DNA of 64,000 nt from an uncultured Stakelama sp. (GCA_964575105.1 CAZNQA010000003.1:2158-66157), one strand, 5' to 3'. Positions 7,001-64,000 are shown, counted from the first letter of the stretch. Notes: generated from the letters alone by a model not told the origin. Numbers and translations are program-made.

Positions 7001-7267
7001 GCGATCCTGCAGATATTGCTGGTTGACGGTCGTGATCGGCGAGGAGCTGACCGTGTTGGGAAGCCGGATGCGCGATCCGGTAACGACGATTTCCTCGTCA
7101 CCCGATTCGGTGTCCTTGGTCGGATCCGACCGGTCGTTGACGCCGATCTGCGCTGCGCCCGGTACTGCGTCTGCTGGTGTCTGCGTGGTCTGGGAATAGG
7201 CCAGCGAGGGAATGCTGCCGAAAATCGCGACCAACGCGGTCGCCCCCAGGAAAGCCGAGTTTCTCAT
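4082..7267 (-). CDS. TonB-dependent receptor (about 1060 aa)
   Basis: Signal peptide, EEIVVTGSRI TonB box, plug motif AVYGSDAIAG, C-terminal Phe; start moved to ATG 7267. Confidence 0.92.
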   Translation of the reverse strand: MRNSAFLGATALVAIFGSIPSLAYSQTTQTPADAVPGAAQIGVNDRSDPTKDTESGDEEIVVTGSRIRLPNTVSSSPITTVNQQYLQDRGLTNVADALNEIPGIRGSVTANGAQGSFGQGVNFINTFNLGSNRTLTLVNGRRYVSSNVTTIFNQGSAGTQVDVNVIPTLLVSDIDIIPTAGAPVYGSDAIAGTINYKLDTRLKGVRASLTTGVTEQGDGFRYNAAIAGGFNFAGDRGNITLSAMRDEQEGLLYNDRAFLRANIGNGTNPSTAQSTTLGRAAGVSFLNDGRLNPGIGYNDSTTDGFAGTILIRDRTLPLLTRGGLITDATSGTVFNAATRRAGAVQNYQFDTSGNLVAFNRGTRFAGVQEASGGDGFRFNDFSQITSTLRRNTLNGFASFRVAPALELFAEGTYFHSRGDELVQQPSFNSSLFGGSSGALTFDVNNPLLTAQARAQLVALGVNRFQVSRASLDLADLTGFSTNDLYRGVIGARGDFNVGSRKFNYEISGNYGRVDIVDTRQDINAQNFINAVNVTRNAAGQVVCNANPAFQAAPGGTPVADAACVPLNVFGEGVASQAARNYVIATNQTRSRLEQYVFNANVGGSLFTLFNNDTGVNVGYEHREEKGSFTPSAFEQAGLGRSVAILPVAGKYNVDEVFGEAKLPVITASNNIPFIYHLELQAAGRYVDNTVNGGFFSWDVSGTYAPIKDVMFRGSYTKSFRAPAITELFSTLAGVFTNVPDLCSPGNKVAGAVPAVRTANCNAFLAKFPNATPLDAAAATVPGLNGGNTQLQNEVARSFSYGVVLQPRFIPGLSITADYVNIKIANPIASLTVAQIAGACFDNSNFNANDPANGNAFCSQIQRYASGQGGASANGGDRGGQVVSDPVNPGVRSGFVNGKRVFFDGIQGAIDYIRPLSGLGLSGRAGFDGTLFFVRTRISDITGVAAVRTDGTIGDPTWQGQLNLRYVGNVIGATVSLNYIGDQLFSRVSRGPDIREIDKLRGYVLVNPSLSFKVNEKFRMTLSVTNLLDRKGQDYFGEIIPSSFTTDGLFGRRFAVGVRGNF

Positions 7268-36069: not shown

Positions 36070-37431
36070 ATGGACACGACCCCGCAACCCTATCGCCCCG
36101 AAACCGCGATCCTCGATCTCGGCGACGCTTTCTATGATGCTGTCTCGGCGGCGCATTTCCCCGAAACGCACCTGCGCTTCCGCAACGATCGCGCCGCCGC
36201 CGAGGTCGGGCTCGAGACGCTTGGCGGGGCCGAATGGATCGAGCATTTCGGGCGGTTCGAGCCCCTGCCCGGCAGCCTCCCCCACCCGCTCGCCCTGCGC
36301 TATCACGGCCACCAGTTCCGCAACTACAATCCCGAGATCGGCGACGGACGCGGCTTCCTGTTCGCGCAGCTCCGCGACGGTGCGGACCGCATGATGGACC
36401 TCGCCACCAAGGGCTCGGGCACGACGCCGTGGAGCCGCTTCGGTGACGGGCGGCTGACGCTGAAGGGCGGGATGCGCGAAGTGCTTGCGACCGAGATGCT
36501 CGAGGCGCTGGGCGTCAAGACCTCGCGCAGTTTCTCGCTGGTCGAGACGGGCGAGCAGCTCGAGCGGGGCGACGAACCCTCGCCCACGCGCGCGGCGGTG
36601 CTGGTCCGGCTCAGCCACAGCCACATCCGCATCGGCACCTTCCAGCGGCTGGCCTATCTGCGCGATGCCGAGAGCATGACCAGGCTGGTCGGCTATGTCC
36701 TGCGCACGCTCTACAACGAAGAACCCGGCGACGATGCCCCCGCACGGCTGCTCGATCTCGTCGTCGGGCGCACCGCGACGCTGGCGGCGAGCTATATGGC
36801 GGCGGGGTTCGTCCACGGCGTGCTCAACACCGACAACATCAACGTGACGGGCGAGAGCTTCGATTACGGCCCGTGGCGCTGGGCACCGACCTGGGACCCC
36901 GCCTTCACCGCCGCCTATTTCGATCATGCCGGGCTTTACGCGTTCGGGCGCCAGCCCGAGGCGATCCACTGGAACGCGATGCAGCTCGCGGTCGCGCTGC
37001 GCACGATCAGCGAGGCGCAGCCACTAATCGACATCCTCGAGACCTTCCCCGAACGCTATCAACGTGCGGTGTCGGACGCGATCCTGTGGCGGCTCGGCGT
37101 GGTCCCGCAGGAACCGGTGCGCGACCGTGCACTGGTGCAGGCGATCGAACAGGGGCTGGTGCAGAGCGGCGTCGGGATCGACCGATTCTTCTTCGATGCG
37201 TTCGGTGGCACCTTGCCCGAGGACGACGCCTTCGCCGACGCTCGCGCCGCGCTGATCGGTTATGCGCCGCGCAAGCCGCGCGACCATCCCTACTGGTCGG
37301 GTGAACCCTGCTCGATGCTGATCGACGAGGTCGAGACCTTGTGGTCCGCGATCGACACGCGCGACGACTGGCATCCGTTCCACGACAAGATCGCAGCGAT
37401 CCGCCAGATGGGCGAAGCGCTCGCCGACTGA
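36070..37431 (+). CDS. selO: SelO/YdiU-family protein adenylyltransferase
   Basis: YHGHQF, GDGRG, KGSGTTPWSRFGDGR, HGVLNTDN, FDYGP. Confidence 0.9.
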   Translation: MDTTPQPYRPETAILDLGDAFYDAVSAAHFPETHLRFRNDRAAAEVGLETLGGAEWIEHFGRFEPLPGSLPHPLALRYHGHQFRNYNPEIGDGRGFLFAQLRDGADRMMDLATKGSGTTPWSRFGDGRLTLKGGMREVLATEMLEALGVKTSRSFSLVETGEQLERGDEPSPTRAAVLVRLSHSHIRIGTFQRLAYLRDAESMTRLVGYVLRTLYNEEPGDDAPARLLDLVVGRTATLAASYMAAGFVHGVLNTDNINVTGESFDYGPWRWAPTWDPAFTAAYFDHAGLYAFGRQPEAIHWNAMQLAVALRTISEAQPLIDILETFPERYQRAVSDAILWRLGVVPQEPVRDRALVQAIEQGLVQSGVGIDRFFFDAFGGTLPEDDAFADARAALIGYAPRKPRDHPYWSGEPCSMLIDEVETLWSAIDTRDDWHPFHDKIAAIRQMGEALAD

Positions 37432-37481
37432 GCGCTGTTCGGCGAGTGGATTCCCACACCAATCTGGGGCAAGACCACGCG

Positions 37482-38894
37482 ATGTCGAGTAACCTGCTTT
37501 CCTACGAACCCGCCACCGGTGCCCTCCTTTGGGAGGGTGCGGTCGGCGATGCCGATGCCGAAGTCGCCGCCGCGCGCGCGGGGTGGCCGGCCTGGGCGGC
37601 GCAACCGCTGACCAACCGGATCGAGACGCTCCGCCGCGTCGCCAACGTCGTCCGCGCGCGCGCAGATGCCTTTGCCGACCTGATCGCGCGCGAGACCGGC
37701 AAGCCGCTGTGGGAAGCGCGGACCGAGGTCGAATCGGTGATCGCCAAGGTCGACATCTCGGTGACGGCCTATGCCGATCGCACGCCGCAGCGCCGGCTCG
37801 ACACGCAGATGACCGGGCGGATGGCGCTCCGCCACAAGCCGCACGGCGTGCTCGCGGTGCTGGGACCGTATAACTTTCCCGCGCATCTGCCCAACGGACA
37901 TATCGTCCCCGCCCTGATTGCGGGGAATGCGGTGGTGTTCAAGCCGTCCGAAAAGACCCCCGCGACGGGCGCATTCCTGGTCGATTGCTTTCGAGCGGGC
38001 GGTGTGCCCGACGGTTGCATCCGCCTGCTCGTCGGCGGTGCGGACGAAGGCAAGGCACTCGCCGCTCATGACGGGATCGACGGGCTGCTGTTCACCGGCT
38101 CCGCGCCGACGGGGATCGCGCTCAATCGACAGTTCGCGACGCGGCCCGAGAAGATCCTCGCGCTCGAAATGGGTGGCAACAATCCGATCATCGTGTGGGA
38201 ATCGCCCGATCTCCACGCGGCGGCAGTCATCATCGTCCAGTCCGCCTTTACCAGCGCAGGGCAACGCTGCACCGCCGCACGCCGGCTGATCGTCGACGAG
38301 AAGCTCTACGATCCGCTGATGGACGAGGTGACCAAGCTGGTCAGCCGGATCATCGTCGACGAGCCGCACGCAACCCCCGCCCCGTTCATGGGCCCGGTGA
38401 TCGACAACGCCGCCGCCGACCTGCTCAGCGAGAGCTTCCTCGAGCTGATGATGCGCGGCGGGCGCGCGATCCGCCATCTCGAGCGCCCGGTCCACGACCG
38501 CCCGTTCCTGCGCCCCGCGCTGATCGACACAACCGAGCTCAACGACCGCCCCGACATCGAGCTGTTCGGGCCGATCCTCCAGGTGATCCGCAAGTCGAGC
38601 TTCGAGGATGCGATCGTCGAAGCGAACAACACGCGTTATGGCCTGTCCGCGTCGCTGCTCAGTCAGAACCCCAAGCTCTACGACCAGTTCTGGGCGAATG
38701 CGCGCGCGGGGATCGTCAACTGGAACAAGCCGACCAACGGTGCCTCGTCGGGCGCACCGTTCGGCGGGATCGGCTGGTCGGGTAACCACCGTCCGAGCGC
38801 CTATTACGCCGCAGATTACTGCGCCTATCCCGTCGTCTCGAACGAAGCCGAACAGGCGCGCGCGAGCATCGGCGTGGGGTTGCGCGACGGTTGA
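37482..38894 (+). CDS. astD: Succinylglutamate-semialdehyde dehydrogenase
   Basis: HKPHGVLAVLGPYNFPAHLPNGH, LEMGGNNP, GQRCT, GNHRPSAYYAADYC. Confidence 0.9.
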   Translation: MSSNLLSYEPATGALLWEGAVGDADAEVAAARAGWPAWAAQPLTNRIETLRRVANVVRARADAFADLIARETGKPLWEARTEVESVIAKVDISVTAYADRTPQRRLDTQMTGRMALRHKPHGVLAVLGPYNFPAHLPNGHIVPALIAGNAVVFKPSEKTPATGAFLVDCFRAGGVPDGCIRLLVGGADEGKALAAHDGIDGLLFTGSAPTGIALNRQFATRPEKILALEMGGNNPIIVWESPDLHAAAVIIVQSAFTSAGQRCTAARRLIVDEKLYDPLMDEVTKLVSRIIVDEPHATPAPFMGPVIDNAAADLLSESFLELMMRGGRAIRHLERPVHDRPFLRPALIDTTELNDRPDIELFGPILQVIRKSSFEDAIVEANNTRYGLSASLLSQNPKLYDQFWANARAGIVNWNKPTNGASSGAPFGGIGWSGNHRPSAYYAADYCAYPVVSNEAEQARASIGVGLRDG

Positions 38895-39509: not shown

Positions 39510-40487
39510 ATGCCGATCTTCGACCCGACACGACGCTCCCTCCTCGCCGGTGGCGCGGCGCTGGCACTGCTGCCCCCGGCCGATGCGCTGGCGCAGTCCG
39601 GCACTACGGACGAGGTCGTAGCACTTTGGCCAGGCGCGATTCCCGGAGATCGTCACGCCACGCCGAAACCGAGCATCGAAGAACGCAGCCATGATCCGCA
39701 ACACCCCGACCGCTGGATTCGCGGGGTCGCTCGACCGACGCTCACGGTAAAGCGCGCGGTCCGACCCAATGGCGCGGCGGTCCTGTTGATGCCGGGCGGC
39801 GGATACGGGTTCCTGTCGTATGACAACGAGGGGCTGGAACAGGCGGCGTGGCTCAACGCACGCGGCATCACCGCGTTCATCCTTCAATACCGGCTCCCGG
39901 GCGAAGGATGGGACCAGCGTGCAAAGGTACCGCTGCAGGATGCGCAGCGCGCAATGCGGTTGATCCGCGCGAACGCAGCACGGTATGGGGTCGATCGCTT
40001 GCGGATTGCGGTGCTCGGTTTTTCCGCGGGCGGACATCTTGCCGGGTCGCTCGCGACGCGACATGCGGAGAAGACCTATGCGCCGGTCGACGCGGCGGAC
40101 ACGCAATCGGCACGGCCCGATTATGCCGGCCTTGTCTATCCGGTGGTGAGCCTTGAAGCCCCCTTTACCCACGGCGGTTCGCGCGACGCCCTGCTTGGCC
40201 CGGACGCCTCGCTTGGGCTCCGCCACGAAGCTTCTGTGGAGGCACGTGTGACTCCGGATACGCCCCCTGTCTTTATCGCGCACGCTGCGGACGATGACCT
40301 CGTCCCCGTCGCCAACAGCCTTGCGCTCTTCACCGCGCTCAAGGCGCAGGCACGCCCCGCCGAACTTCATGTGTTTGAAGCAGGCGGTCACGGTTTTGGC
40401 GTGCGTCTCTCACCCGCACGCCCCGCTTCTGCCTGGCCCGCGCTGTTCCTGGCGTTTGGCGCGAGCAAGCAGATCTTTCCCGCGTGA
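39510..40487 (+). CDS. Tat-exported esterase, BD-FAE-like (acetyl/feruloyl esterase type)
   Basis: TRRSLL Tat motif, MPGGGY, GFSAGGHL, DDLVP, GGHGFG. Confidence 0.82.
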   Translation: MPIFDPTRRSLLAGGAALALLPPADALAQSGTTDEVVALWPGAIPGDRHATPKPSIEERSHDPQHPDRWIRGVARPTLTVKRAVRPNGAAVLLMPGGGYGFLSYDNEGLEQAAWLNARGITAFILQYRLPGEGWDQRAKVPLQDAQRAMRLIRANAARYGVDRLRIAVLGFSAGGHLAGSLATRHAEKTYAPVDAADTQSARPDYAGLVYPVVSLEAPFTHGGSRDALLGPDASLGLRHEASVEARVTPDTPPVFIAHAADDDLVPVANSLALFTALKAQARPAELHVFEAGGHGFGVRLSPARPASAWPALFLAFGASKQIFPA

Positions 40488-50461: not shown

Positions 50462-50553
50462 AGTATCCACTCCCGAAAGTCTCTGCGCCTGAACGTCACT
50501 TGCACGAAAGAGAATTCTATTGCACCAGTGAAACCCGCCCGCGGGAGAGAAAG

Positions 50554-52104
50554 ATGACGACCTTCAGCAAGCGTGAGATCCTTAGCGGCCCGCTTGCCGC
50601 GCTCGGCGTCGGTGCGCTGGCCCGCGCCGCGCCCGCCATCGCTGCGCCCCGCACGCCCGCGGCGGGCACCGTCCCACCCGGTCGTTTCGATGCGACGCGG
50701 GAATCACTCTCCACGTACACGACGCCCGAATGGTTCAAGGATGCCAAGTTCGGCATCTGGTCGCATTGGGGCCCGCAGGCCGTCCCCGCGCGTGGCGACT
50801 GGTACGCGCGGTGGATGTACGTCCCGGGCCACCCGCATTACGAGCATCATCTCAAGACCTACGGCCACCCGTCCGAAAAGGGCTATAAGGACATCATCCC
50901 GCTGTGGCGGGCGGAGCGCTGGGACCCCGAGGCGCTGATGGCGCGCTATGCCAGGGCGGGCGCGAAATATTTCGTGTCGATGGGCGTCCACCACGACAAT
51001 TTCGACCTGTGGAACTCGAAGCACAACCGCTGGAACGCAGTCGCGATGGGGCCGAAGCGCGACGTGGTCGGCGCATGGCAGACCGCCGCCAGGCGACACG
51101 GCCTGCGCTTCGGCGTCTCCGAACATCTCGGCGCGAGTCATAACTGGTGGTATCCCAACCACGGCTACGATCAGTTCTGGCCCAAGCTCGGCATTCCCTA
51201 TGACGGGGCCAATCCGGCGTTCGCGGATCTCTATCACGACAACCGTAGCGAACCGTATCTCGACACCAAGGCAAGCTGGTACACCACCAATCCGGCCTAT
51301 CATCAGTTGTGGCTCAAGCGGATCAGCGATCTGGTCGATAGCTATCAGCCCGACCTGCTCTATTCGGACGGCGGGCTGCCATTCGGCGCGGTCGGTCGCA
51401 ATCTGGTCGCGCGCCTGTACAACGCCAGCATCGCGCGCACCGGGCGGCTCGAGGCGGTGTATAATTGCAAGGATTCGGGCACCGGCGAGTTCTTCAAGGA
51501 AGGCATGGTGCAGGACGTCGAGCGCGGCGTGCTCAAGGGGATCAATCCGCTCCCGTGGCAGACCGACACGTCGAACGGCGACTGGTTCTACAGCGAGGAT
51601 GCCACGTACAAGACGTCGAACGAGATCGTGACGATGCTCGCCGATATCGTCAGCAAGAATGGCAACATGCTGCTCAACGTCGTGCAGCGCGGCGATGGGT
51701 CGCTGCCGCCCGAATCCGACAGTCTGCTGACCGACCTCGCCGCCTGGATGGCGGTCAATGGCGAGGCGATCCACGGCACGCGCCCGTGGACGCACTATGG
51801 CGAAGGGCCGACCGAGGCGGTCGAAGGCATGTTCAAGGAAAAGGCAGATTACACGCCGCGCGACATCCGCTTCACGACCCGGGGCAAGACGCTGTACGCG
51901 ATCACGCTCGGCGAACCGCGCGGCGTGACCGAGATCGCCGCCTTGCGAAGCGGCGCGCCACAGGCGCGTGGCCGCGTGGTCGGGGTCGATCTGCTCGGCG
52001 CCGGACCGGTGCGCTTCCGCCAGACTGCCACCGCGCTGTCGATCGACGTTCCCGCACGTCTCCCGACCCGCCATGCCAGCGTGTTCCGCATCCACCAGGC
52101 CTGA
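50554..52104 (+). CDS. GH29 alpha-L-fucosidase family enzyme
   Basis: WFKDAKFGIWSHWG, HHDNF, LYSDG nucleophile region, SKNGNMLLN. Confidence 0.9.
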   Translation: MTTFSKREILSGPLAALGVGALARAAPAIAAPRTPAAGTVPPGRFDATRESLSTYTTPEWFKDAKFGIWSHWGPQAVPARGDWYARWMYVPGHPHYEHHLKTYGHPSEKGYKDIIPLWRAERWDPEALMARYARAGAKYFVSMGVHHDNFDLWNSKHNRWNAVAMGPKRDVVGAWQTAARRHGLRFGVSEHLGASHNWWYPNHGYDQFWPKLGIPYDGANPAFADLYHDNRSEPYLDTKASWYTTNPAYHQLWLKRISDLVDSYQPDLLYSDGGLPFGAVGRNLVARLYNASIARTGRLEAVYNCKDSGTGEFFKEGMVQDVERGVLKGINPLPWQTDTSNGDWFYSEDATYKTSNEIVTMLADIVSKNGNMLLNVVQRGDGSLPPESDSLLTDLAAWMAVNGEAIHGTRPWTHYGEGPTEAVEGMFKEKADYTPRDIRFTTRGKTLYAITLGEPRGVTEIAALRSGAPQARGRVVGVDLLGAGPVRFRQTATALSIDVPARLPTRHASVFRIHQA

Positions 52105-52136: not shown

Positions 52137-54215
52137 ATGTATCGTCGTCCCACCCGCCGCGCCGGCGTTGCGCTCGCGCTTGCGCTCGCTTGCGGCATCG
52201 CCCCGAACGCGCTTGCGCCCGAGGCGCGCGCGCAGAGTGCAGCCGGCCATCCCGGCTGGCCCGGCAAGGGCGAGCTGTTCGTCGGCACCTGTTATCAGCC
52301 GATCGATCGCAGCCCCGCGCAGATCCGCGCGGACATTGCGATCGTGAAGGCCGCGGGCATGACGATGGTGCGGATGGGCGACCTGTCGTGGGATTCGTTC
52401 GAGCCCGAAGAAGGTCGCTTCGACTTCAAATGGTTCGACGACGTGATCGCGCAGATGCACGCGGCGGGCATCCGCGTGATCGTCGACATCCCCGGGCAGC
52501 CCGCGCCGATTTGGCTGCACAAGACCTATCCCGGGGTCGACATCGTCAACCAGGACGGCGTGCGGATCAACGCCGCGAGCCGCTACTGGGACAATATCAG
52601 CGACCCCGATTATCGCCGCCTCGCCGCCCGCCTCGCGCAGAAGATGATGGAGCGGTACGCGCACAATCCGGCGGTGATCGCGCTCGGCTATGACAATGAG
52701 ATCGGCAACGGGCATATGTCCTATTCGCCCGCCGACCGGACTCGCTTCGTCGCATGGCTCAAGCGCCGCTACGGCTCGATCGATGCGCTCAACAAAGCCT
52801 GGGCGACGCAGCGCTGGTCGCGCCGGATCAACACCTGGGATCAGGTCGACCTGCCCTATGAACGCGGCCCGGGCCCGAACGAGCGGTATCTCGACCTGCA
52901 TCGCTACTGGTCGGACGACACCGTCGGCGCGCTTCAGGAGCTGGAGGCAGTGCGCAGGCAATACGCCCCCAACCTGCCGGTCGCATCGAACTTCTGGCCC
53001 AACGCGGGGTCGAAGGGGTTCGACTATCTGCGCAACTGGGACAAGATCTCGACCTATGGCGCACAGGGCTTCTACCCCGGCGATCCGCTGAGCGCCGCGT
53101 TCGACGTGATGTCGAACCGCGCGGGGCATGACACGCCGGTGTGGTTCAACGAATTCACCGCAGGCGGCGGCGGCTATTACGGCACGCCCGGCCGCTCGCG
53201 GATGTGGGCTTATTTCGGGCTGCTTTACTACACCCAGAGCTTCCTCGCCTGGACCTTCAATTCGCACAGCGGCGGCGAGGAACAGGCGCTGTTCGGCCTG
53301 GTCGACCATGACGGCCGCGCCTCGTGGAAGGTCGACGAATTCGCGCAGATCGCGCGCGAGATGAAGACGCTCAAGACCCTCGGCTTTCCGCGCTACGATC
53401 CGCCGCAGGTTGCGGTAAACTTCTCGTACCAGAGCTACTGGCTGACCAGTCCGCCCCCCGGCCCCAACACGATGCAGGAATATTTCAAGGGCGATTACAG
53501 CAAGTTCGGGCAGGCAGCCTATCGCCCGATGTTCGAGGACAACATCGATACCGCGGTGATCGACTTCGGCCATGACGCGCTGGCGAAATACAAGCTGGCG
53601 ATCCTGCCGAGCGCCTATGTGATGGACGCGCCGACTGCGGCGGCAGTCCGCAAATATGTCGCGGATGGCGGGACCGTCATCATGACGGGCTATTCGGCCA
53701 AGGTCGACGAGACCGGCAAATGGTTCGAGACGCCCCTGCCCGGTCGGCTCGGCGACGTGTTCGGCGTGCGCACCAACGCCTTCTATCGTGCCGAGCAGCC
53801 GCTCAAGGTGAGTTTCAACGGCGCGACGCTGACCGGCAGCGACCCGTATTACGAGATCCTCGAGCCAAGCACCGCGACGCCGCTCGCGACCTTCGCCAAC
53901 ACGCCGCAGAAAAGCGCCGCGATCACGATCAACCATTACGGCAAGGGGCAGGCGATCTACGTCGCGACCGCGCCGCAATCGGAACTGCTCGGGCCGCTGG
54001 TACGGTCGCTCTACCCGTCGCTCGGGATCAGGCCCGGGCCGAAGACTCCCGCCGGCGTGGTCGCGCGCGTGGTCGAGGGCCGCACGCTGTACGTCAATAC
54101 GACGCAAGCGCCGGTCAGCGTCTCGTTCACCGGAACGAAGCGCGGTCTGCTGTCGAACAGGCCGTATGCAGGCACGCTCGCGCTCGCGCCTTACGGTGTC
54201 GAGGTCGTTCAATAG
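52137..54215 (+). CDS. GH42 beta-galactosidase with N-terminal signal
   Basis: LSWDSFEPEEGRFDF, YDNEIG, WFNEF, GEEQALFG, trimerisation domain. Confidence 0.88.
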   Translation: MYRRPTRRAGVALALALACGIAPNALAPEARAQSAAGHPGWPGKGELFVGTCYQPIDRSPAQIRADIAIVKAAGMTMVRMGDLSWDSFEPEEGRFDFKWFDDVIAQMHAAGIRVIVDIPGQPAPIWLHKTYPGVDIVNQDGVRINAASRYWDNISDPDYRRLAARLAQKMMERYAHNPAVIALGYDNEIGNGHMSYSPADRTRFVAWLKRRYGSIDALNKAWATQRWSRRINTWDQVDLPYERGPGPNERYLDLHRYWSDDTVGALQELEAVRRQYAPNLPVASNFWPNAGSKGFDYLRNWDKISTYGAQGFYPGDPLSAAFDVMSNRAGHDTPVWFNEFTAGGGGYYGTPGRSRMWAYFGLLYYTQSFLAWTFNSHSGGEEQALFGLVDHDGRASWKVDEFAQIAREMKTLKTLGFPRYDPPQVAVNFSYQSYWLTSPPPGPNTMQEYFKGDYSKFGQAAYRPMFEDNIDTAVIDFGHDALAKYKLAILPSAYVMDAPTAAAVRKYVADGGTVIMTGYSAKVDETGKWFETPLPGRLGDVFGVRTNAFYRAEQPLKVSFNGATLTGSDPYYEILEPSTATPLATFANTPQKSAAITINHYGKGQAIYVATAPQSELLGPLVRSLYPSLGIRPGPKTPAGVVARVVEGRTLYVNTTQAPVSVSFTGTKRGLLSNRPYAGTLALAPYGVEVVQ

Positions 54216-54227
54216 GGTGCGTCGGTC

Positions 54228-55049
54228 CTACAACGCGTAGAAGGCGGTCGCCGCACCGCCGAACAGCTGGTCCGGATCCGCGCCCGCGCGGCCGGCGAGC
54301 TGTCGTGCGTCGTCGTGCCAATGTCGCCAATCATCCCCCGACAGGCGCACCACCGGCCAGTCGCTTCCCCAAATCAGCCGTACCCCGAACGTTTCGACGA
54401 GATGCGCGACATAGGGCATCAATGCCGTCGCGGGCGCACCCGTCGCCTGCTCGGTCCGCAGACCCGAGAGCTTGCAGAACAGGCCAAGCCCGCCAAGCGC
54501 CGCGATCTGATCGCGCCACGGGTCGAGCACCATCCGCGCTGCGTCGGGCTTTGCGGCATGGTCGATCACGATCGCGAGATCGGGCCAGCGTGCGGCGAAA
54601 CGCGCAAGCATCGGGAGGTGGCGCGGCTGCACGAGCGCATCGAGCCGCAGCCCCGCCGCCTGCATCGCCTCGAACGCGGGCGTCAGCGCGTCCTGCAACA
54701 GCCAGTCGGGATCGGCGATCGCCTGCAGCATCGGGCGCAACCCGCGCAGCTTCGGGTGGCGCGCGAGCGAAGCGATCCGCGCGGGTGCGTCCGGCTGCAG
54801 CAGATCGACCCAGCCGACCACCGCGCGCACCAACGGCGTGCGCGATGCCAGCGCGAGGATCCAGTCGGTATCGCGGTCGGTCGGCTGCGAATGCACGAGC
54901 ACCGTCCCGTCAAGCGCCACCCCGGCGCCGGCTGTCCGCAGGTCATCGGGTCCGAAATCGCGATAGATCGCAGCTTCCGACGCGGTCGGCCATGTGTGTC
55001 CCGGCGTGGCAAGCGACCAGAAATGCTGATGCGCGTCGATCAGGGACAT
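54228..55049 (-). CDS. Amidohydrolase-family sugar lactonase (L-fucono/L-galactono-1,5-lactonase type)
   Basis: IDAHQHFW, IDHAAKP, KLSG, WGSDWPV. Confidence 0.85.
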   Translation of the reverse strand: MSLIDAHQHFWSLATPGHTWPTASEAAIYRDFGPDDLRTAGAGVALDGTVLVHSQPTDRDTDWILALASRTPLVRAVVGWVDLLQPDAPARIASLARHPKLRGLRPMLQAIADPDWLLQDALTPAFEAMQAAGLRLDALVQPRHLPMLARFAARWPDLAIVIDHAAKPDAARMVLDPWRDQIAALGGLGLFCKLSGLRTEQATGAPATALMPYVAHLVETFGVRLIWGSDWPVVRLSGDDWRHWHDDARQLAGRAGADPDQLFGGAATAFYAL

Positions 55050-55441
55050 CACGGCTGATCGGCGAGTGTATAGATCTGTTCCGCCTCGACCCATTTCTGC
55101 CCAGCCCGTGCCGACGGCAGTGGTCGCTGGAACCGGTCCATGAACGTCTCCCACGCCCGGATGTCGGGGTCGGCGGCGTCACGTTCGGCCTTTGCGGCGG
55201 GGTCGAAACCGGGCGTGGTCTCCATCAGCATGACCAGCCGGTCACCGACATGCCAGATTTCCAGCGCGGTGATCCCCTCGGCCCGGATCGCCCGCGAGAC
55301 CGCTGCGGGCGGGCCGCCCGGGCGATGCCAGTGGCGATACGCGGCGATCGCCGCGGGCTCGTCCTGCAGGTCGAGCAAAAGGACATGCCGGATCCGGTTT
55401 TCGCCGTCCTCACGCCCGGTTTGTGCCGGAATGCCAGTCAT
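55049..55441 (-). CDS. L-rhamnose/L-fucose-type mutarotase
   Basis: LDLQDEPAAIAAYRHWH, WETFMDRFQ, EQIYTL. Confidence 0.82.
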   Translation of the reverse strand: MTGIPAQTGREDGENRIRHVLLLDLQDEPAAIAAYRHWHRPGGPPAAVSRAIRAEGITALEIWHVGDRLVMLMETTPGFDPAAKAERDAADPDIRAWETFMDRFQRPLPSARAGQKWVEAEQIYTLADQP

Positions 55442-55560
55442 AGCCTCACCTTTTCGTTCGCGTCCCCGCGATAGTGCAGCGGTAGCAGCGATTGCCTCCG
55501 CCGGCTCTTTCCTGCGACAGATCGCCCCGGTATGCCCGGGCGCATACAGAGAGGACCTAT

Positions 55561-56355
55561 GTGACGCGAACCGGACCGAAGGGCGTATATGCTGCGCCAG
55601 CGCTGGAGAAGGCGTTCGAGATCATCGAACTGCTCGCCGACTATCGCGACGGTGCGCTCGTCAGCGAAATGGCCGCCAGCCTCGGTCGATCGGTCGGCGA
55701 GTTGTTCCGCATCGTGATCGTGATGGAGCGGCTGGGCTATCTCCGCAAGTCCGCCAACACCGATCGCTACACCGTATCGTACAAGCTGCTCGAGACCGCC
55801 TATCGCGCGACCCCCGCGCAGAACCTGGTGCGGGCCGCACTGCCGCAGATGCAGGGCCTTGCGCTGGCGGCGGGGCAATCGTGCCATCTGGTAGTGGCGA
55901 GCGAGGATCACGGCCTCGTCATCGCCTGCGAGCAGCAACCCGGGGCGCGCGGTTTCTCGCTGCGCGTCGGGGCGCGGGTCGACATCGTCAGCAGTTGTTC
56001 GGGGCAGGTTCTGCTCGCCTACGCTGCCCCCCGGCGACGCGAACGGATTCTCGATGCCATCGCCGCCCAGCGCGCGGACGAGGTCGATCGCAGCCATCTG
56101 GAGGAACGCTTCGCAACGATCCGCGCGGCGGGGCACGACAGCCGGCAAAGCCCGATCACCTACGGCGTGACCGATATCAGCTTTCCCGTCTTCGGCTTCG
56201 ACGGACGGGCGATGGCGGCGCTGACCATCCCGTTTCTCGAATTGATCGACGGTTCGCAGAAGGTCGGGCTGGAAGCAGCCCGCGAGTTGCTCCGCGCAAC
56301 GACCGTGGCGATTTCCGACACGCTTGGGTATCAAGGTGCGCCGTCGGAGGGGTGA
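55561..56355 (+). CDS. IclR-family transcriptional regulator 1
   Basis: YAAPALEKAFEIIELL HTH, IclR effector domain; GTG start with GAGG RBS. Confidence 0.88.
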   Translation: MTRTGPKGVYAAPALEKAFEIIELLADYRDGALVSEMAASLGRSVGELFRIVIVMERLGYLRKSANTDRYTVSYKLLETAYRATPAQNLVRAALPQMQGLALAAGQSCHLVVASEDHGLVIACEQQPGARGFSLRVGARVDIVSSCSGQVLLAYAAPRRRERILDAIAAQRADEVDRSHLEERFATIRAAGHDSRQSPITYGVTDISFPVFGFDGRAMAALTIPFLELIDGSQKVGLEAARELLRATTVAISDTLGYQGAPSEG

Positions 56356-56398
56356 TCCCGCATCCGGCGTCGGGGCACCGGAACCGCTCGAACGTCCG

Positions 56399-57409
56399 CT
56401 AGAAATAGGCGATCGCCTTCAGGACATGATCCGCCTCCGCGATCAGTTGCGGCAGCCGCGTGGGCATGTCCTCGGCCGGGAAGCTGTGGGTCTGCAACGC
56501 ATCGATCGGAATATGCCCCGTCCGGATCGCCGCGATGACGTTCGCAAAATCGCTCGTCAGCGCATTGCGGCTCGCCAGAACACACGTCTCCCGCTTGTGG
56601 AATTCCGGATCGGAGAAGACCAGATTGCCCGGTGCCACGCCCACCAGCACCAGCGAACCGCCATGCGCGACATAAGCGAGGCTTTGCGTCATCGCTGCAA
56701 GGACGCCGGTCGCATCGAATACCGCATCGAACATCTCGCCGCCGGTCCGGTCGGCCAGGGCCGCTCCCGTATTGTCATTGACCGGCAGGGTGTCGTCGAA
56801 ACCAAGTTTCGCGCGGGCATAGTCGAGCCGGGCAACGCGCGTATCGATCAACGTTACCGTCGCCCCCGCCAACCGCGCGAACAGGCCGACCGCGACGCCG
56901 ATCGGCCCCGCGCCGACGACCAGCACGCGGTTACCGGCTGTTAGCGCCCCGCGCGCGACGGCATGCGCGCCGATCGCGAGGAACTCGATCATCGCCGCAT
57001 GGTCGAGCGAAAGCCCCGCGACATCGATCACTGCGCCCTCGGGAACCGCGATCAATTCGCACATCCCGCCATCCTGGTGGACGCCAAGCACGGAAATGGT
57101 GACGCAAGCATTGGGCTTGCCCACGCGGCACGCAATGCAGGTGCCACACGACAGGTACGGATTGATCGCCACACGTTGGCCGGTGGTGAAGGCCGATCCA
57201 GCGGGCACCGCCTCGACCTCGCCGGCAAGCTCGTGCCCCATCACGCGGGGATAGGACAGGAACGGATGCCGCCCGGCGTAGATATGATAATCGGTGCCGC
57301 ACAGGCCGATCCGCCGGATCCGGATCAGCACCTCGCCCGCACGCGCGGTCGGCGAAGGCCGATCGATCAGATCGAGGCGCTGTGGCGCCTGGCACACGAT
57401 GGCTTTCAC
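56399..57409 (-). CDS. Zn-dependent dehydrogenase, L-galactonate 5-dehydrogenase (LgoD/YjjN)-like
   Basis: CGTD, YPRVMGHE, VLGVHQDGG, FSDPEFHKRE, SRNA motifs shared with E. coli YjjN as I recall it. Confidence 0.8.
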   Translation of the reverse strand: MKAIVCQAPQRLDLIDRPSPTARAGEVLIRIRRIGLCGTDYHIYAGRHPFLSYPRVMGHELAGEVEAVPAGSAFTTGQRVAINPYLSCGTCIACRVGKPNACVTISVLGVHQDGGMCELIAVPEGAVIDVAGLSLDHAAMIEFLAIGAHAVARGALTAGNRVLVVGAGPIGVAVGLFARLAGATVTLIDTRVARLDYARAKLGFDDTLPVNDNTGAALADRTGGEMFDAVFDATGVLAAMTQSLAYVAHGGSLVLVGVAPGNLVFSDPEFHKRETCVLASRNALTSDFANVIAAIRTGHIPIDALQTHSFPAEDMPTRLPQLIAEADHVLKAIAYF

Positions 57410-57451
57410 AAGTTCGGCAGCTCCGGGGAAACTCTCCCGTCATTACGAACC

Positions 57452-57490
57452 TGATGTCATATGTGCAACTGAACTTTGACATATGCAAAC
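57452..57490. promoter_or_regulatory. Paired CATATG-centred sites upstream of the dehydrogenase gene
   Basis: TGTCATATGTGCA and TGACATATGCAAA, centres 22 bp apart, in an AT-rich gap. Confidence 0.45.
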
Positions 57491-57512
57491 TGATGGATTG
57501 CGGGCGGCGACC

Positions 57513-58292
57513 TCAGAGGCGCTCGTCGCTCTGCACCAGTTGCTCGGCAATCCGCCGGGCCGCTGCGAGCACCATCGCCCCGACCTGCTCGGCACTGTGC
57601 ACCGGCTCGCGCCGCTCGAGGTACGGCACGGTGAGCGCGGCCGCCGCCGCCCCACCGCGCATGATCGGCGCGGAAATATCGGTGACGCCCGCAACCAGCG
57701 GGCTCTGAGTCAGCTCGACCTCCCGCGTGCGCACAAGATCGGCGTAGGTCCGGAACGCGTCGAGCCCAGCCGGGTCGAGCGGCGGCGCGAACAGGGCCTC
57801 CCAGCGGCGGCGCACCTCCTCGGGCTGGAAGGCATAGAGCACGGCACCGGAGGCGGTTTTCGTGATCGGCCGGCGATAGCCGACGCGGACCGAAAAGCCG
57901 ACTTGCTCTCCCGATTCGACCCGCGCCACGACGACCATCTCGCCGCGGCTGTGGAACGCGAGATGACAGGATTCGCAGGAGTCCTGCACCAGCCGCCGCA
58001 TGACCGGGATCGCCAGTTCGATCAGGTTGCGCGTGCGCGGCTGCCGCATCCCCAGCGCGAACAGCCGGTCGGTGAGGCGATACCCCTCCGAGCCGGGATC
58101 CTGATCGATATAGCCGCGGAACTGGAGCACCTGCACCATCCGGTGCAGCTCGCCGCGCGACCGGTCGAGCTGATCCGCGATCGCCGCCAGTGGCAAGGGA
58201 TTGGTCGCGTCGGCGAGCAGCTCGAGGATGTCGAGCCCCTTTTCCAGCGCCGGCGCCTTGTAGCGCCGGTCCTCGTCATCGAACTCGTCCAT
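57513..58292 (-). CDS. IclR-family transcriptional regulator 2
   Basis: YKAPALEKGLDILELL HTH, IclR domain. Confidence 0.88.
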   Translation of the reverse strand: MDEFDDEDRRYKAPALEKGLDILELLADATNPLPLAAIADQLDRSRGELHRMVQVLQFRGYIDQDPGSEGYRLTDRLFALGMRQPRTRNLIELAIPVMRRLVQDSCESCHLAFHSRGEMVVVARVESGEQVGFSVRVGYRRPITKTASGAVLYAFQPEEVRRRWEALFAPPLDPAGLDAFRTYADLVRTREVELTQSPLVAGVTDISAPIMRGGAAAAALTVPYLERREPVHSAEQVGAMVLAAARRIAEQLVQSDERL

Positions 58293-58368: not shown

Positions 58369-60711
58369 CTAGCGCCCGATCACCGTGACCAGTGCGCCAA
58401 CGTCCTGCCCGCTCGGCAACTTGCCCGAGGCGGTGAGCTTTCCGGTCGCCTCGTCCCAGCGCAACGTCGCGGTGCTGCCGCCCTTGCGATAGGCGTTGGT
58501 CACGCCGTCATCGTCGTACAGCGTGAAGCTGGTCGATCGCCCGGGATAGACCCGGATACTCTCGAGCCGCTGGCGGGTCGCGGTGCTAGGGACTTGAACC
58601 CCCATCGGCACGATCGAGCCGGCACGCACGAACAGCGGAATCTTGTCGATCGGCGCTGCGGCGGTGATCGTCTGGCCGCCGGTATGCCGCTCGTTGGTCC
58701 AGTAATCATACCAGTCGGCCCCGGCGGGCAGGTAGACCGGGCGGCTGGTCGCGCCCTGCGCGGTGACGGGCGCGACAAGAAAGGCGGGGCCGAACATATA
58801 TTCGTCGCCCATGTCGGCGACCTTGGGGTCGTTCGGGAAATCCATGAACAGCCCACGCATGAACGGCGCGCCGGTCTCATAGGTCTGGTGACCCATCGCG
58901 TAGAGATAGGGGATCAGCGTGTAGCGCAGCTTTAGATATTGCGCGAGTACGGGCTCCGCCGCCGTGCCATAATCCCAGATCGCGGTCCCCGGGCGCTGCC
59001 CGTGGATGCGCAGCGTCGGGGTGAAGGTATTGTACTGGAACCAGCGCACGAACAGTTCGGGGTAATCGGCATAGCTCGGCGCCATCGCGGTCGCACCCGC
59101 GGGATCGAGCAGGACCGGATGCTCGGCCTTGGGGCCGTTCGGATACTGCCAGCCGCCGGTGTCGCTGCTCCAGTAAGCAAGGCCCGATGCGGTGAAGTTG
59201 AGCCCGGTCGGCACTTGCCGCTTGAGCGCTTCCCATGTCGACTGGACGTCGGACGACCAGAACAGGCAACCGTTGCGCTGCGTGCCGAGATAAGCGGCAC
59301 GGCACAGGATCAGGTTGCGGAAATCGGGCCGGTCGCGGGCCGAACCATCGGCGACGCCGGCGGTGTGCACCAGCGGAAACAGGTTGTGATACCGGTCGCC
59401 CGAGCCGATCGCGAACTGATGGCCGTCGGGGACGAGATCGGGCTCGGTCTCGTCGAGCCAGAACCAGTCGAACCCTTCCGAGGCGATATTGTCGCGGATG
59501 CGATCCCAGAACCAGCCGCGCGCATCGGGGTTGGTGCTGTCGAGCAACGCGCCCGCACGGTCCGAGCGGATCGGCAGGCCATCGACGACGGTGCCGTCGG
59601 CATCGTGCAGCAGCCAGCCCTTGGCGGCGAGGGTGTTATAGTAACGCGATTCCTTCTCGAAACGCGGCCACACGCTGATGATGCTGTGCATGCCGAGCCC
59701 CTTGAGCTTGGCGTTCATGCCCTTGGGGTCGGGGAAGAAGGTCCGGTCGATGTCGAGCTGCCCCATCCGGCTCCAGTAGAACCAGTCGAGCACCATCACG
59801 TCGAGCGGATAGCCACGGCTGCGATAGCCCTCCGCCACGCCGAGCAGTTCGGCCTGCGTCTCGTAGCGCGCCTTGCTCTGGATGAGCCCGAACGCCGCCT
59901 TGGGCGGGAGCGGGGTCTTGCCGGTCAGCCTGGCATAACCCGCATACAGCGCGTCATAGGTATCCCCGGTGATGACGAAGAACGAGACGCGCTCGCCGAC
60001 TTCGGATTGCCAGTGCGTACTGTTGTGCAACCCCGGCGAGACGGTCGCGGTCGAGGGATTGTCCCAGACGATTCCGTACCCCTTGTTGGTGACCATGAAC
60101 GGCACGCACACCGTTTCCCCGGCGGGCGCATCGTAATTGTGTCGGCAGTCGATCGTCCGCCCGCGCAGGTCGAGCCGGCCTTCCTGGTTCTGGCCCAGCC
60201 CGTAATAATGTTCGTCGAGCGGGGCGGCGAAGCTCGCGCCGACCTTGAAGGTCTTCTCGCCCGCGACGGTGTGCGGCGCCATTTCCCATCCGGTCATCTG
60301 CGTGATCAGGTGGCCGTCGGCCCCTTTGACGCTGATCGATACGGGCGGCAGCGACGGGGCGAAATACCGCTCCATCTGCGACGGTGCCTTGGGCCAGGGC
60401 TGCGCGGCGACGGTGAGCGACAGCGCCGGGGAGACGAACACGTCGCCCGATGCATCCGCGCGGTGGCTCCAGCCGGTTGCGTCGGCCTTCGCGTTCGCAC
60501 CGGGCCCGGGCGCGGCATCGGCGAGATCGCGGTCGAGCGCGATCGTGACTCGGACGATGTTGGGCGCATAAGGCTCGATCGAGACGCGACTGCCGTTGCG
60601 GTCGAGCGAGGCCAGCGGCTCCGCCTGCGCGGCAGCGAGCGGCATCAGCCCGATGACCGCAGCGCCGGTCCATCTCGCGATCGCGCGTCTGCGTGCCGAA
60701 ACCGTTGCCAT
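58369..60711 (-). CDS. GH31 alpha-xylosidase, exported
   Basis: DVMVLDWFYW, WLDETEPD nucleophile, WSSD, YWSSDTGG, RWFQY, EYMFG; no PA14 insertion. Confidence 0.88.
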   Translation of the reverse strand: MATVSARRRAIARWTGAAVIGLMPLAAAQAEPLASLDRNGSRVSIEPYAPNIVRVTIALDRDLADAAPGPGANAKADATGWSHRADASGDVFVSPALSLTVAAQPWPKAPSQMERYFAPSLPPVSISVKGADGHLITQMTGWEMAPHTVAGEKTFKVGASFAAPLDEHYYGLGQNQEGRLDLRGRTIDCRHNYDAPAGETVCVPFMVTNKGYGIVWDNPSTATVSPGLHNSTHWQSEVGERVSFFVITGDTYDALYAGYARLTGKTPLPPKAAFGLIQSKARYETQAELLGVAEGYRSRGYPLDVMVLDWFYWSRMGQLDIDRTFFPDPKGMNAKLKGLGMHSIISVWPRFEKESRYYNTLAAKGWLLHDADGTVVDGLPIRSDRAGALLDSTNPDARGWFWDRIRDNIASEGFDWFWLDETEPDLVPDGHQFAIGSGDRYHNLFPLVHTAGVADGSARDRPDFRNLILCRAAYLGTQRNGCLFWSSDVQSTWEALKRQVPTGLNFTASGLAYWSSDTGGWQYPNGPKAEHPVLLDPAGATAMAPSYADYPELFVRWFQYNTFTPTLRIHGQRPGTAIWDYGTAAEPVLAQYLKLRYTLIPYLYAMGHQTYETGAPFMRGLFMDFPNDPKVADMGDEYMFGPAFLVAPVTAQGATSRPVYLPAGADWYDYWTNERHTGGQTITAAAPIDKIPLFVRAGSIVPMGVQVPSTATRQRLESIRVYPGRSTSFTLYDDDGVTNAYRKGGSTATLRWDEATGKLTASGKLPSGQDVGALVTVIGR

Positions 60712-60970
60712 ATCGCTGATCCTCTTCGTCGACGCCGGTGGTTGACGCATCCGCATCGCCCGGCCAGTTACGTTCACCTATGAGCAATCGTTTCACTGGC
60801 GCAAGCGACAATGCGAGTCGACCGCGTTCCCGGGATACGGCCTGCGGGGTGTGCCGCCCGTTGGCAACCGCTCCGATGGTCGCGGCTGCCGCTGTGCCGG
60901 TATTTCCTTACGCTCGGCGCAACGGCGCGGCGGGCATCGCGCCCGGCATTTCCCCGCAAAAGGATCCGAC

Positions 60971-63502: not shown

Positions 63503-64000
63503 ATGTCTGCTGCCGTTGAGGTCCGTCGTACCGGAAGCAACAAGGCGCTGCTGCTGAGCGCGTCGATCCTCCCCTTCCTGATGCTCGCCGCCCCCGCGGT
63601 CGCCCAGACGACGCAGCAGACCACCGCACCGACCGGCCCCGCGCTCCCCGCAAGCGACCAGTCACCCGCCACCGCCCCCGCCATCGACCCTGCGGTCGAG
63701 GCCCCCGCCGCCGCCGCCGTCGGCCAGGACATCGTCGTCACCGGCGTCCGCGCGAGCCTTCGCTCGGCGCAGAACATCAAGCGCAATTCGGATCAGGTGG
63801 TCGACTCGATCGTCGCCGAGGACATCGGCAAGCTGCCCGATCGCAACATCGCCGAGGCGTTGCAGCGCATCTCGGGCGTCCAGATCCAGCGCAACTTCGG
63901 CGAAGGCAGCGCGGTCGCGATCCGCGGGCTGACGCAGGTCCGCACCGAACTCAACGGCCGCGACATTTTCACCGCGAGCGGATCGGGCAATGCGCTGAGC
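63503..64000 (+). CDS. TonB-dependent receptor, N-terminal part (runs off the window)
   Basis: AAGGAA RBS, signal peptide, DIVVTGVRASL, DSIVAEDIGKLPDRNIAEALQRISGV; read manually. Confidence 0.92.
   Translation, partial: MSAAVEVRRTGSNKALLLSASILPFLMLAAPAVAQTTQQTTAPTGPALPASDQSPATAPAIDPAVEAPAAAAVGQDIVVTGVRASLRSAQNIKRNSDQVVDSIVAEDIGKLPDRNIAEALQRISGVQIQRNFGEGSAVAIRGLTQVRTELNGRDIFTASGSGNALS

Follow-up and report, generated by a model that had tools for sequence, protein, structure and literature searches.

The 64,000-nt stretch of DNA analysed here (the window; bases 2158-66157 of the 90,229-base contig C3, CAZNQA010000003.1, of an uncultured Stakelama sp., GCA_964575105.1) encodes an aldose mutarotase, a sugar lactonase and a zinc-dependent dehydrogenase resembling Escherichia coli LgoD. 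These three proteins probably (at a probability of about 0.6) form part of a distributed oxidative, non-phosphorylative L-fucose-type catabolic system, in which the dehydrogenase would be an accessory enzyme acting on L-galactonate. The source assembly comprises 3.54 Mb in 164 contigs and is 91% complete, and it contains a candidate gene for every step of the non-phosphorylative L-fucose route, from transport to pyruvate and L-lactate. Substrates throughout are predictions from the gene identities and linkages set out below. The genes at the centre of the analysis are the following (window coordinates):

54228..55049, minus strand: Amidohydro_2 (COG3618) sugar lactonase of the L-fucono/L-galactono-1,5-lactonase type (PF04909, E 2.9e-34)
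55049..55441, minus strand: RhaM/FucM-family aldose mutarotase (PF05336, E 2.9e-18, 66 bits against a cut-off of 23)
55492..56355, plus strand: IclR-family regulator, IclR_A (HTH_IclR and IclR_C)
56399..57409, minus strand: LgoD-like zinc-dependent medium-chain dehydrogenase (MDR; Pfam ADH_N and ADH_zinc_N)
57513..58292, minus strand: second IclR-family regulator, IclR_B (HTH_IclR and IclR_C)

A preliminary description of positions 54228-57409 had recognised a mutarotase, an amidohydrolase lactonase and a dehydrogenase "closely resembling" LgoD, and all three genes are indeed present there. The likeness of the dehydrogenase to LgoD is moderate (40% identity over the full length, with one gap), although LgoD is the nearest of the characterised enzymes compared, a reverse best-match comparison that covered LgoD, RspB and the NCBIfam models for Tdh, IdnD and GatD. 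The protein fits the zinc MDR fold, has the ligands of both the catalytic and the structural zinc as well as a GxGxxG motif for NAD binding, and its CGTD, GHE and GAGPIG motifs and the four-cysteine stretch CGTCIACRVGKPNAC align with those of LgoD. A search of the host genome with LgoD returned the dehydrogenase as the top match at 261 bits, the runner-up scoring 97.

The best NCBIfam and PDB matches of the dehydrogenase are to E. coli RspB (PDB 4ilk), a starvation-sensing zinc dehydrogenase whose substrate is unknown. NCBIfam holds no LgoD model, and the RspB model PRK10083 gives the dehydrogenase 199 bits and LgoD itself just 206, so that the RspB match is uninformative on substrate; threonine-dehydrogenase models give the dehydrogenase about 150 bits. 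Identity to RspB is only 32%, with more gaps than in the LgoD alignment. Across 57 orthologues of the dehydrogenase, 97 columns are at least 95% conserved, and LgoD matches 78 of them, compared with 59 for RspB; 24 conserved columns are common to LgoD alone, including the DPEFH stretch, H149 and R153, and five to RspB alone. A tree of the dehydrogenase clade, LgoD, RspB and the host paralogues, with Bvu0222, LguD and LgnH outside the comparison, places the orthologues in one clade apart from LgoD and makes LgoD the nearest labelled sequence, the tree being weak and its branches long. The clade is thus best described from these alignments as a sister subfamily of LgoD, as distinct from a demonstrated isofunctional orthologue, and the dehydrogenase is a probable L-galactonate 5-dehydrogenase. 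Its nearest relatives are in Sphingomonas sp. PAMC 26621 and 26617 (88-89% identity). Among 8000 candidates scored in the protein search, 7884 matched at E <=1e-30, and where one of the best 120 homologues carries a name, this is generic or wrongly transferred ("zinc-binding alcohol dehydrogenase family protein", for example).

The mutarotase is the first gene of a pair with the lactonase, and its stop codon shares one base with the lactonase ATG (TGATG), so the two genes are likely to be translationally coupled. The lactonase reading frame stays open back to 55154 (54228-55154, minus strand), with the ATG at 55049 as the likely true start. The closest solved structure to the lactonase is 4dlf (E 4e-25); on the NCBIfam L-fucono-1,5-lactonase equivalog model (NF052480) it scores 147 bits and does not reach the cut-off of 400, which marks it as a distant relative, to be described as of that type and not as an equivalog. 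The PDB matches of the mutarotase are limited to the L-fucose mutarotases 7BYU and 7BYW and are weak (E about 1e-5).

IclR_A, which the preliminary description had left out, is transcribed away from the mutarotase-lactonase pair and towards the dehydrogenase gene. IclR_B is the same-strand upstream neighbour of the dehydrogenase gene and itself lies downstream of a glycoside hydrolase family 31 (GH31) gene, the first in the string GH31-IclR_B-dehydrogenase; from the gene coordinates, the gaps are 76 bp between GH31 and IclR_B and 103 bp between IclR_B and the dehydrogenase. Within the second of these gaps (window 57440-57500) an ATATG-centred motif is directly repeated (GTCATATGTGCAACTGA / GACATATGCAAACTGA), and this repeat could be an operator.

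The remaining upper steps appear to be encoded on the same contig, in a minus-strand operon 9-15 kb further on and beyond the window end (C3 coordinates):

72250-74556, minus strand: second GH29
71027-72253, minus strand: FucP (TIGR00885, 367 bits against a cut-off of 280)
70071-71030, minus strand: aldo-keto reductase (AKR) of the L-galactose/L-fucose 1-dehydrogenase type
69778-70107, minus strand: UxaA small subunit (uxaS), the SAF-like N-terminal part, 109 aa
68582-69781, minus strand: UxaA-family large subunit (uxaL), 399 aa (GD_AH_second and GD_AH_C)

Three of the junctions in this operon (second GH29-fucP-AKR-uxaS-uxaL) are 4-bp overlaps, and AKR and uxaS overlap by 37 bp. The preliminary description had expected an L-galactose 1-dehydrogenase to lie elsewhere, and the AKR, directly after fucP and 12.6 kb away, agrees with this: every PDB entry that it matches at E 1e-15 or better is an L-galactose dehydrogenase. 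A genome-wide search for the UxaA/GarD family gave a single match, about 2.4 kb past the window end, where uxaL covers positions 181-491 of the GarD model (507 positions in all). The uxaS reading frame overlaps it by 4 bp and is 40-48% identical to loci with full-length UxaA. The two genes are therefore predicted to encode a split, heteromeric UxaA/GarD-family dehydratase. Its position accounts for the earlier remark that fuconate dehydratase and aldolase genes are absent from the window, which is an effect of the window edge as far as the dehydratase is concerned; the remark holds for two families, the enolase superfamily and that of UxaA, neither of which has a match in the window, DapA-type aldolases and IlvD/Edd dehydratases not having been searched for. 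The open reading frame of the second GH29 (768 aa) probably has its true start further in, because the Pfam match begins only at residue 256. Close upstream of this operon is a gene for tRNA-Val (GAC) (C3 74927-75001; L003:10770-10844).

The lower steps of the L-fucose route would be provided by a fucose-type cluster in the first 15.6 kb of contig C12 (locus L006:215-15554). This includes a short-chain dehydrogenase/reductase (SDR; 2245-2973) of the 2-keto-3-deoxy-L-fuconate (L-KDF) 4-dehydrogenase type, which is 59-81% identical to the SDRs in fucose operons of Caulobacter, S. albertensis and Hephaestia, and an LldD L-lactate dehydrogenase above the curated cut-off. The 2,4-didehydro-3-deoxy-L-rhamnonate hydrolase model gives an FAH-family hydrolase 444 bits, just short of the cut-off of 500; the enzyme so modelled acts on the same diketone as that of the fucose route. 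Further members of the cluster are GH141, a second lactonase with 74% identity to that of the window, a second AKR with 49% identity to that on C3, a GntR regulator, a TonB-dependent receptor and a 2-hydroxyacid dehydrogenase, as well as a 344-aa open reading frame (6127-7161) with zero matches in Pfam and NCBIfam. A 369-aa enolase-superfamily protein in the same cluster has L-talarate/galactarate dehydratase as its best curated match, at just 138 bits, and Hephaestia mangrovi (L028) has it with 79% identity. One possibility is that it represents a so far uncharacterised dehydratase of 6-deoxy sugar acids. A canonical FucD was considered for this step and rejected, the only two enolase-superfamily genes of the host being ManD and this distant member. 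No fucose isomerase (FucI) was found in the host genome.

Genes of the glucuronate isomerase route lie on two other contigs. UxaC on contig C5 (71939-74996; L094:11939-14996) is divergent from a UxuB-like reductase (C5 73425-74996), and this reductase is the sole Mannitol_dh-family gene of the host. ManD lies on contig C57 (11540-14910; L005), where it is accompanied by a transporter of the ExuT type and a regulator resembling ExuR. The galacturonate isomerase route looks incomplete in the host, since UxaC is present and UxaB and full-length UxaA were not found. KDPG (2-keto-3-deoxy-6-phosphogluconate) aldolase and PfkB kinases are present in the genome.

The proposed system begins with the plant-glycan locus around the window genes, whose GH29, GH31, GH35 and GH42 enzymes would release L-fucose-type sugars. 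FucP would import the sugar and the RhaM/FucM-type mutarotase would equilibrate its anomers, after which the AKR would form the 1,5-lactone and the Amidohydro_2 lactonase would open the ring. The split UxaA-family dehydratase, the C12 enolase-type dehydratase or both would then give 2-keto-3-deoxy-L-fuconate, which the C12 SDR and FAH-family hydrolase would convert to pyruvate and L-lactate, the latter being oxidised by LldD. The window mutarotase and lactonase would serve the upper steps common to both sugars, L-galactose sharing the permease, the AKR and the lactonase with L-fucose as far as L-galactonate. The LgoD-like dehydrogenase would oxidise L-galactonate at C5 to D-tagaturonate, and the flow would continue toward D-altronate and 2-keto-3-deoxygluconate (KDG), which needs a tagaturonate reductase and an altronate dehydratase. 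This L-galactose branch is plausible, with the odds roughly even, and is incomplete as seen, because the assembly yielded no tagaturonate reductase or full-length UxaA. This gap could be a true one, could be bridged by a promiscuous enzyme or could reflect the 9% that the assembly lacks.

The preliminary description had assigned the window genes to L-galactose rather than to L-fucose, and this part of it is unsupported because, by homology, a complete non-phosphorylative L-fucose route is encoded: the FucP is above its cut-off, the genome also has the split UxaA-family dehydratase, the SDR, the diketo-hydrolase and LldD, and neither a fucose isomerase nor a tagaturonate reductase was found. 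It had also proposed a genome search for the AKR and for uxaB/uxaA, of which the AKR was found, UxaA occurs only in the split form and a UxaB-like gene was not found. It further saw in the GH29 a possible alpha-L-galactosidase. As to the complete and co-regulated L-fuconate route nearby that it named as contrary evidence, the route is complete in the genome and forms one operon in relatives; in the host itself its genes are in separate units.

The relatives concerned belong to a set of 80 loci carrying orthologues of the dehydrogenase (53-88% identity), drawn from Sphingomonas, Asticcacaulis, Caulobacter, Acetobacterales-type genera (Lichenicoccus, Acidisoma), Oxalobacteraceae and others, in which neighbours were identified by tblastn in flanks of up to 10 kb. 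The orthologues lie in fucose-type clusters across these loci. The most conserved neighbour is an IclR regulator, with homologues (at least 30% identity) in 53 loci, followed by FucP (35), the lactonase (33) and the AKR (23). A UxaA-type dehydratase is present in 19-20 loci, in the split form in 12 and full-length in 7; a short UxaB-like reductase and a mutarotase each occur in 19, GH29 in 18, GH95 in 17, an SDR of the KDF-dehydrogenase type in 12 and an FAH-family hydrolase in 8. In 10 of its 12 loci the split dehydratase has the SDR within 10 kb, and where the gene order was mapped in detail it immediately precedes the SDR. Full-length UxaA tends to be accompanied by the UxaB-like gene (three of seven loci).

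Individual loci show how these genes are combined. In Caulobacter sp. BK020 (L080) they form a single operon, fucP-dehydrogenase-lactonase-iclR-AKR-uxaS-uxaL-SDR, in which most genes overlap or have 4 bp between them and the largest gap is 12 bp; the same genes are grouped with FAH and a UxaB-like gene in S. albertensis. The Hephaestia locus has a C12-like fucose set adjoining the dehydrogenase, with a UxaB-like gene and full-length UxaA within 10 kb. S. gellani (L042) has FucP, AKR, GH95, full-length UxaA, the dehydrogenase, the lactonase and a UxaB-like gene, with neither SDR nor FAH, which is the gene set expected for conversion of L-galactose to KDG.

The short UxaB-like reductase (about 380-396 aa, Mannitol_dh family; for example L054:8365-9513, L017:7939-9129 and L086:4928-6070) has tagaturonate reductase as its best NCBIfam match, at about 180-190 bits and under the cut-off, and its gene often adjoins that of the dehydrogenase. 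Its presence near the dehydrogenase in 19 of the 80 loci fits a sequence from L-galactonate through D-tagaturonate to D-altronate.

The dehydrogenase occurs in just 3 of 151 genomes of a family-wide sample, and co-occurrence was therefore taken from a genus sample of 121 genomes, whose counts are association only and not statistics because the genomes are related to one another. Forty of the 121 encode the dehydrogenase. It is present in all seven genomes with a UxaB-like gene and in 19 of the 22 with an orthologous split dehydratase. No Mannitol_dh protein in the 121 genomes exceeds the tagaturonate-reductase cut-off, and a canonical UxaB was found in none of them. An AKR homologue accompanies the dehydrogenase in 39 of the 40 positive genomes and is found in 22 others that lack the dehydrogenase. 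A role of the dehydrogenase as sole sugar 1-dehydrogenase was rejected on the first of these counts, and our reading is that it is an accessory of an AKR-based fucose-type pathway and not its first enzyme.

A more specific and tentative proposal is that the dehydrogenase, together with the UxaB-like reductase where present, forms a C5-epimerisation shunt on an L-fucose operon. One permease, AKR, lactonase and promiscuous UxaA-family dehydratase would then handle both L-fucose and L-galactose, in an arrangement that would be widespread in plant-associated Alphaproteobacteria and so far unannotated. UxaA-family members accept D-arabinonate, D-altronate, L-fuconate and L-galactonate, which have a common C2-C4 configuration (PMC6336799), AKR family members oxidise L-fucose, L-galactose and D-arabinose (PMC6336799, PMC12632266) and FucP is reported to carry L-galactose, less efficiently (PMC13406643). 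In a less likely variant, the dehydrogenase starts an undescribed 6-deoxy route from L-fuconate.

Several observations weigh against placing the window pair and an L-galactonate-specific dehydrogenase in one L-fucose-type system. An identity of 40% leaves the substrate unfixed in this enzyme family. Neither a tagaturonate reductase/UxaB-like gene nor full-length UxaA was found on searching the host assembly, which is only 91% complete, and 33 of the 40 dehydrogenase-positive genomes in the genus sample have no UxaB-like gene, so that the proposed next step has no obvious gene there. The fucose-type genes of the host are spread over at least three transcription units and two contigs, and a quick search of the intergenic regions of the C3 units for common 9-mers and palindromes gave nothing convincing except the local direct repeat upstream of the dehydrogenase gene. 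There are also two lactonases, two AKRs and two types of dehydratase, and the C3 and C12 sets could serve different sugars.

The best surviving alternative, which we consider unlikely, is that the dehydrogenase acts on another substrate, either the CH3-CHOH end of L-fuconate, starting a 6-deoxy route through the UxaB-like reductase and a UxaA-type dehydratase, or another aldonate or polyol. Threonine and butanediol dehydrogenases of the same superfamily oxidise CH3-CHOH ends, and the scores on the threonine-dehydrogenase models are consistent with such a reaction. The alternative would also account for operons that are otherwise complete for fucose, in which the dehydrogenase is co-transcribed with fucP and the lactonase and no UxaB-like gene is present, for the frequent lack of that gene in the genus sample and for the strong link to the split dehydratase. 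However, the 22 genomes with an AKR and no dehydrogenase indicate that the dehydrogenase is dispensable to the AKR-based route, L-fuconate would already be handled by the SDR and FAH enzymes, and the clade keeps the 24 conserved positions, DPEFH among them, that it has in common with LgoD and not with RspB. We know of no 6-deoxy route from L-fuconate through these two enzymes.

A dedicated L-galactose route on C3, comprising GH29, the FucP-like permease, the AKR, the lactonase, the mutarotase, the dehydrogenase and the UxaA-type enzyme acting on D-altronate, with the C12 cluster left to handle L-fucose, is more doubtful still. It would explain the duplication of the upper steps and the two dehydratase types, and it agrees with the structural matches of the AKR, with the combination of a C12-like set, dehydrogenase, UxaB-like gene and full-length UxaA in Hephaestia and with the L-galactose-type set of S. 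gellani. The missing tagaturonate reductase and a permease that passes the curated FucP cut-off argue against it, as does the dehydratase: the host enzyme is of the split type, whose partnership with the SDR points to a 2-keto-3-deoxy-L-fuconate-type product and not to KDG, and the heteromeric UxaA-family genes of Paraburkholderia mimosarum were assigned to L-fuconate dehydration from gene context (PMC6336799). A reverse role, in which UxaC makes D-tagaturonate from D-galacturonate, the dehydrogenase reduces it to L-galactonate and the UxaA-type enzyme dehydrates this, so that bacteria would have an equivalent of the reductive galacturonate route of fungi, would suit a host that has UxaC and in which UxaB and full-length UxaA were not found, but is very improbable because not one of the 80 loci has UxaC or a transporter of the ExuT type in the 10 kb on either side of the dehydrogenase, where the neighbours are instead FucP, GH29 and GH95.

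The surroundings of the window genes are a plant-glycan locus with GH35, GH39, GH29, GH42, GH31 and a second GH35-like gene, two TonB-dependent receptors and a hybrid histidine kinase. The members nearest to the pair and the dehydrogenase, and the receptor at the window end, are as follows (window coordinates):

50500..52104, plus strand: GH29 alpha-L-fucosidase, GH29a (PF01120, E 5.4e-88)
52137..54215, plus strand: GH42 beta-galactosidase with an N-terminal signal-like sequence (PF02449, PF08532)
58369..60777, minus strand: GH31, alpha-xylosidase-like (PF01055, E 1.5e-84)
63503..64000, plus strand: TonB-dependent receptor, 5' part, continuing beyond the window end

The GH31 scores 256 bits on the NCBIfam alpha-xylosidase model, which is under the cut-off. 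Adjoining the first TonB-dependent receptor is a BD-FAE/alpha-beta-hydrolase esterase (39510-40487, plus strand) that may be a glycan acetylesterase, with an aldehyde dehydrogenase gene upstream of it (37341-38894, plus strand).

By homology, the host encodes a full oxidative L-fucose route beside a xyloglucan-type glycoside hydrolase locus. If the pathway is a dual one, L-fucose would be converted to pyruvate and L-lactate and L-galactose would pass through D-altronate to KDG. L-galactose occurs in some plant wall glycans. The dehydrogenase represents a large, generically named zinc dehydrogenase subfamily within fucose-type operons of soil- and plant-associated Proteobacteria; should this subfamily prove to be L-galactonate 5-dehydrogenase, it would explain bacterial use of plant-wall L-galactose and improve automated pathway prediction for both sugars.

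Two known systems invite comparison. L-galactonate is degraded by LgoD, UxaB, UxaA, KdgK and Eda in E. coli and by LguA-H in Luteolibacter LG18 (PMC12632266), and an L-galactose pathway in Phocaeicola (Bacteroides) vulgatus is attributed to Bvu0219/0220/0222 (Hobbs et al. 2014, as related in PMC12632266). The host resembles these in its AKR-type aldose dehydrogenase, its COG3618-type lactonase, its MDR with moderate identity to LgoD and its KDPG aldolase and PfkB kinases, and related loci add the UxaB-like reductase and UxaA. It differs in that tagaturonate reductase and full-length UxaA were not found in the assembly, and in that the dehydrogenase clade, separate from LgoD in the weak tree, is embedded in fucose-type gene sets.

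The closer counterpart is route 3 of L-fucose degradation, which consists of FucM, L-fucose 1-dehydrogenase, L-fucono-1,5-lactonase, L-fuconate dehydratase, L-KDF 4-dehydrogenase and L-2,4-diketo-3-deoxyfuconate hydrolase and is reported for Xanthomonas, Burkholderia, Herbaspirillum and Paraburkholderia (PMC11199699, PMC6336799). The host has a homologue for each step, together with FucP and LldD. Its genes are scattered rather than gathered in one cluster, the upper steps are duplicated, the lactonase and the FAH-family hydrolase fall under the curated equivalog cut-offs, and the LgoD-like dehydrogenase is added, for which the published route has no role. The system is therefore a new member of known sugar pathways, to which an uncharacterised dehydrogenase subfamily is attached.

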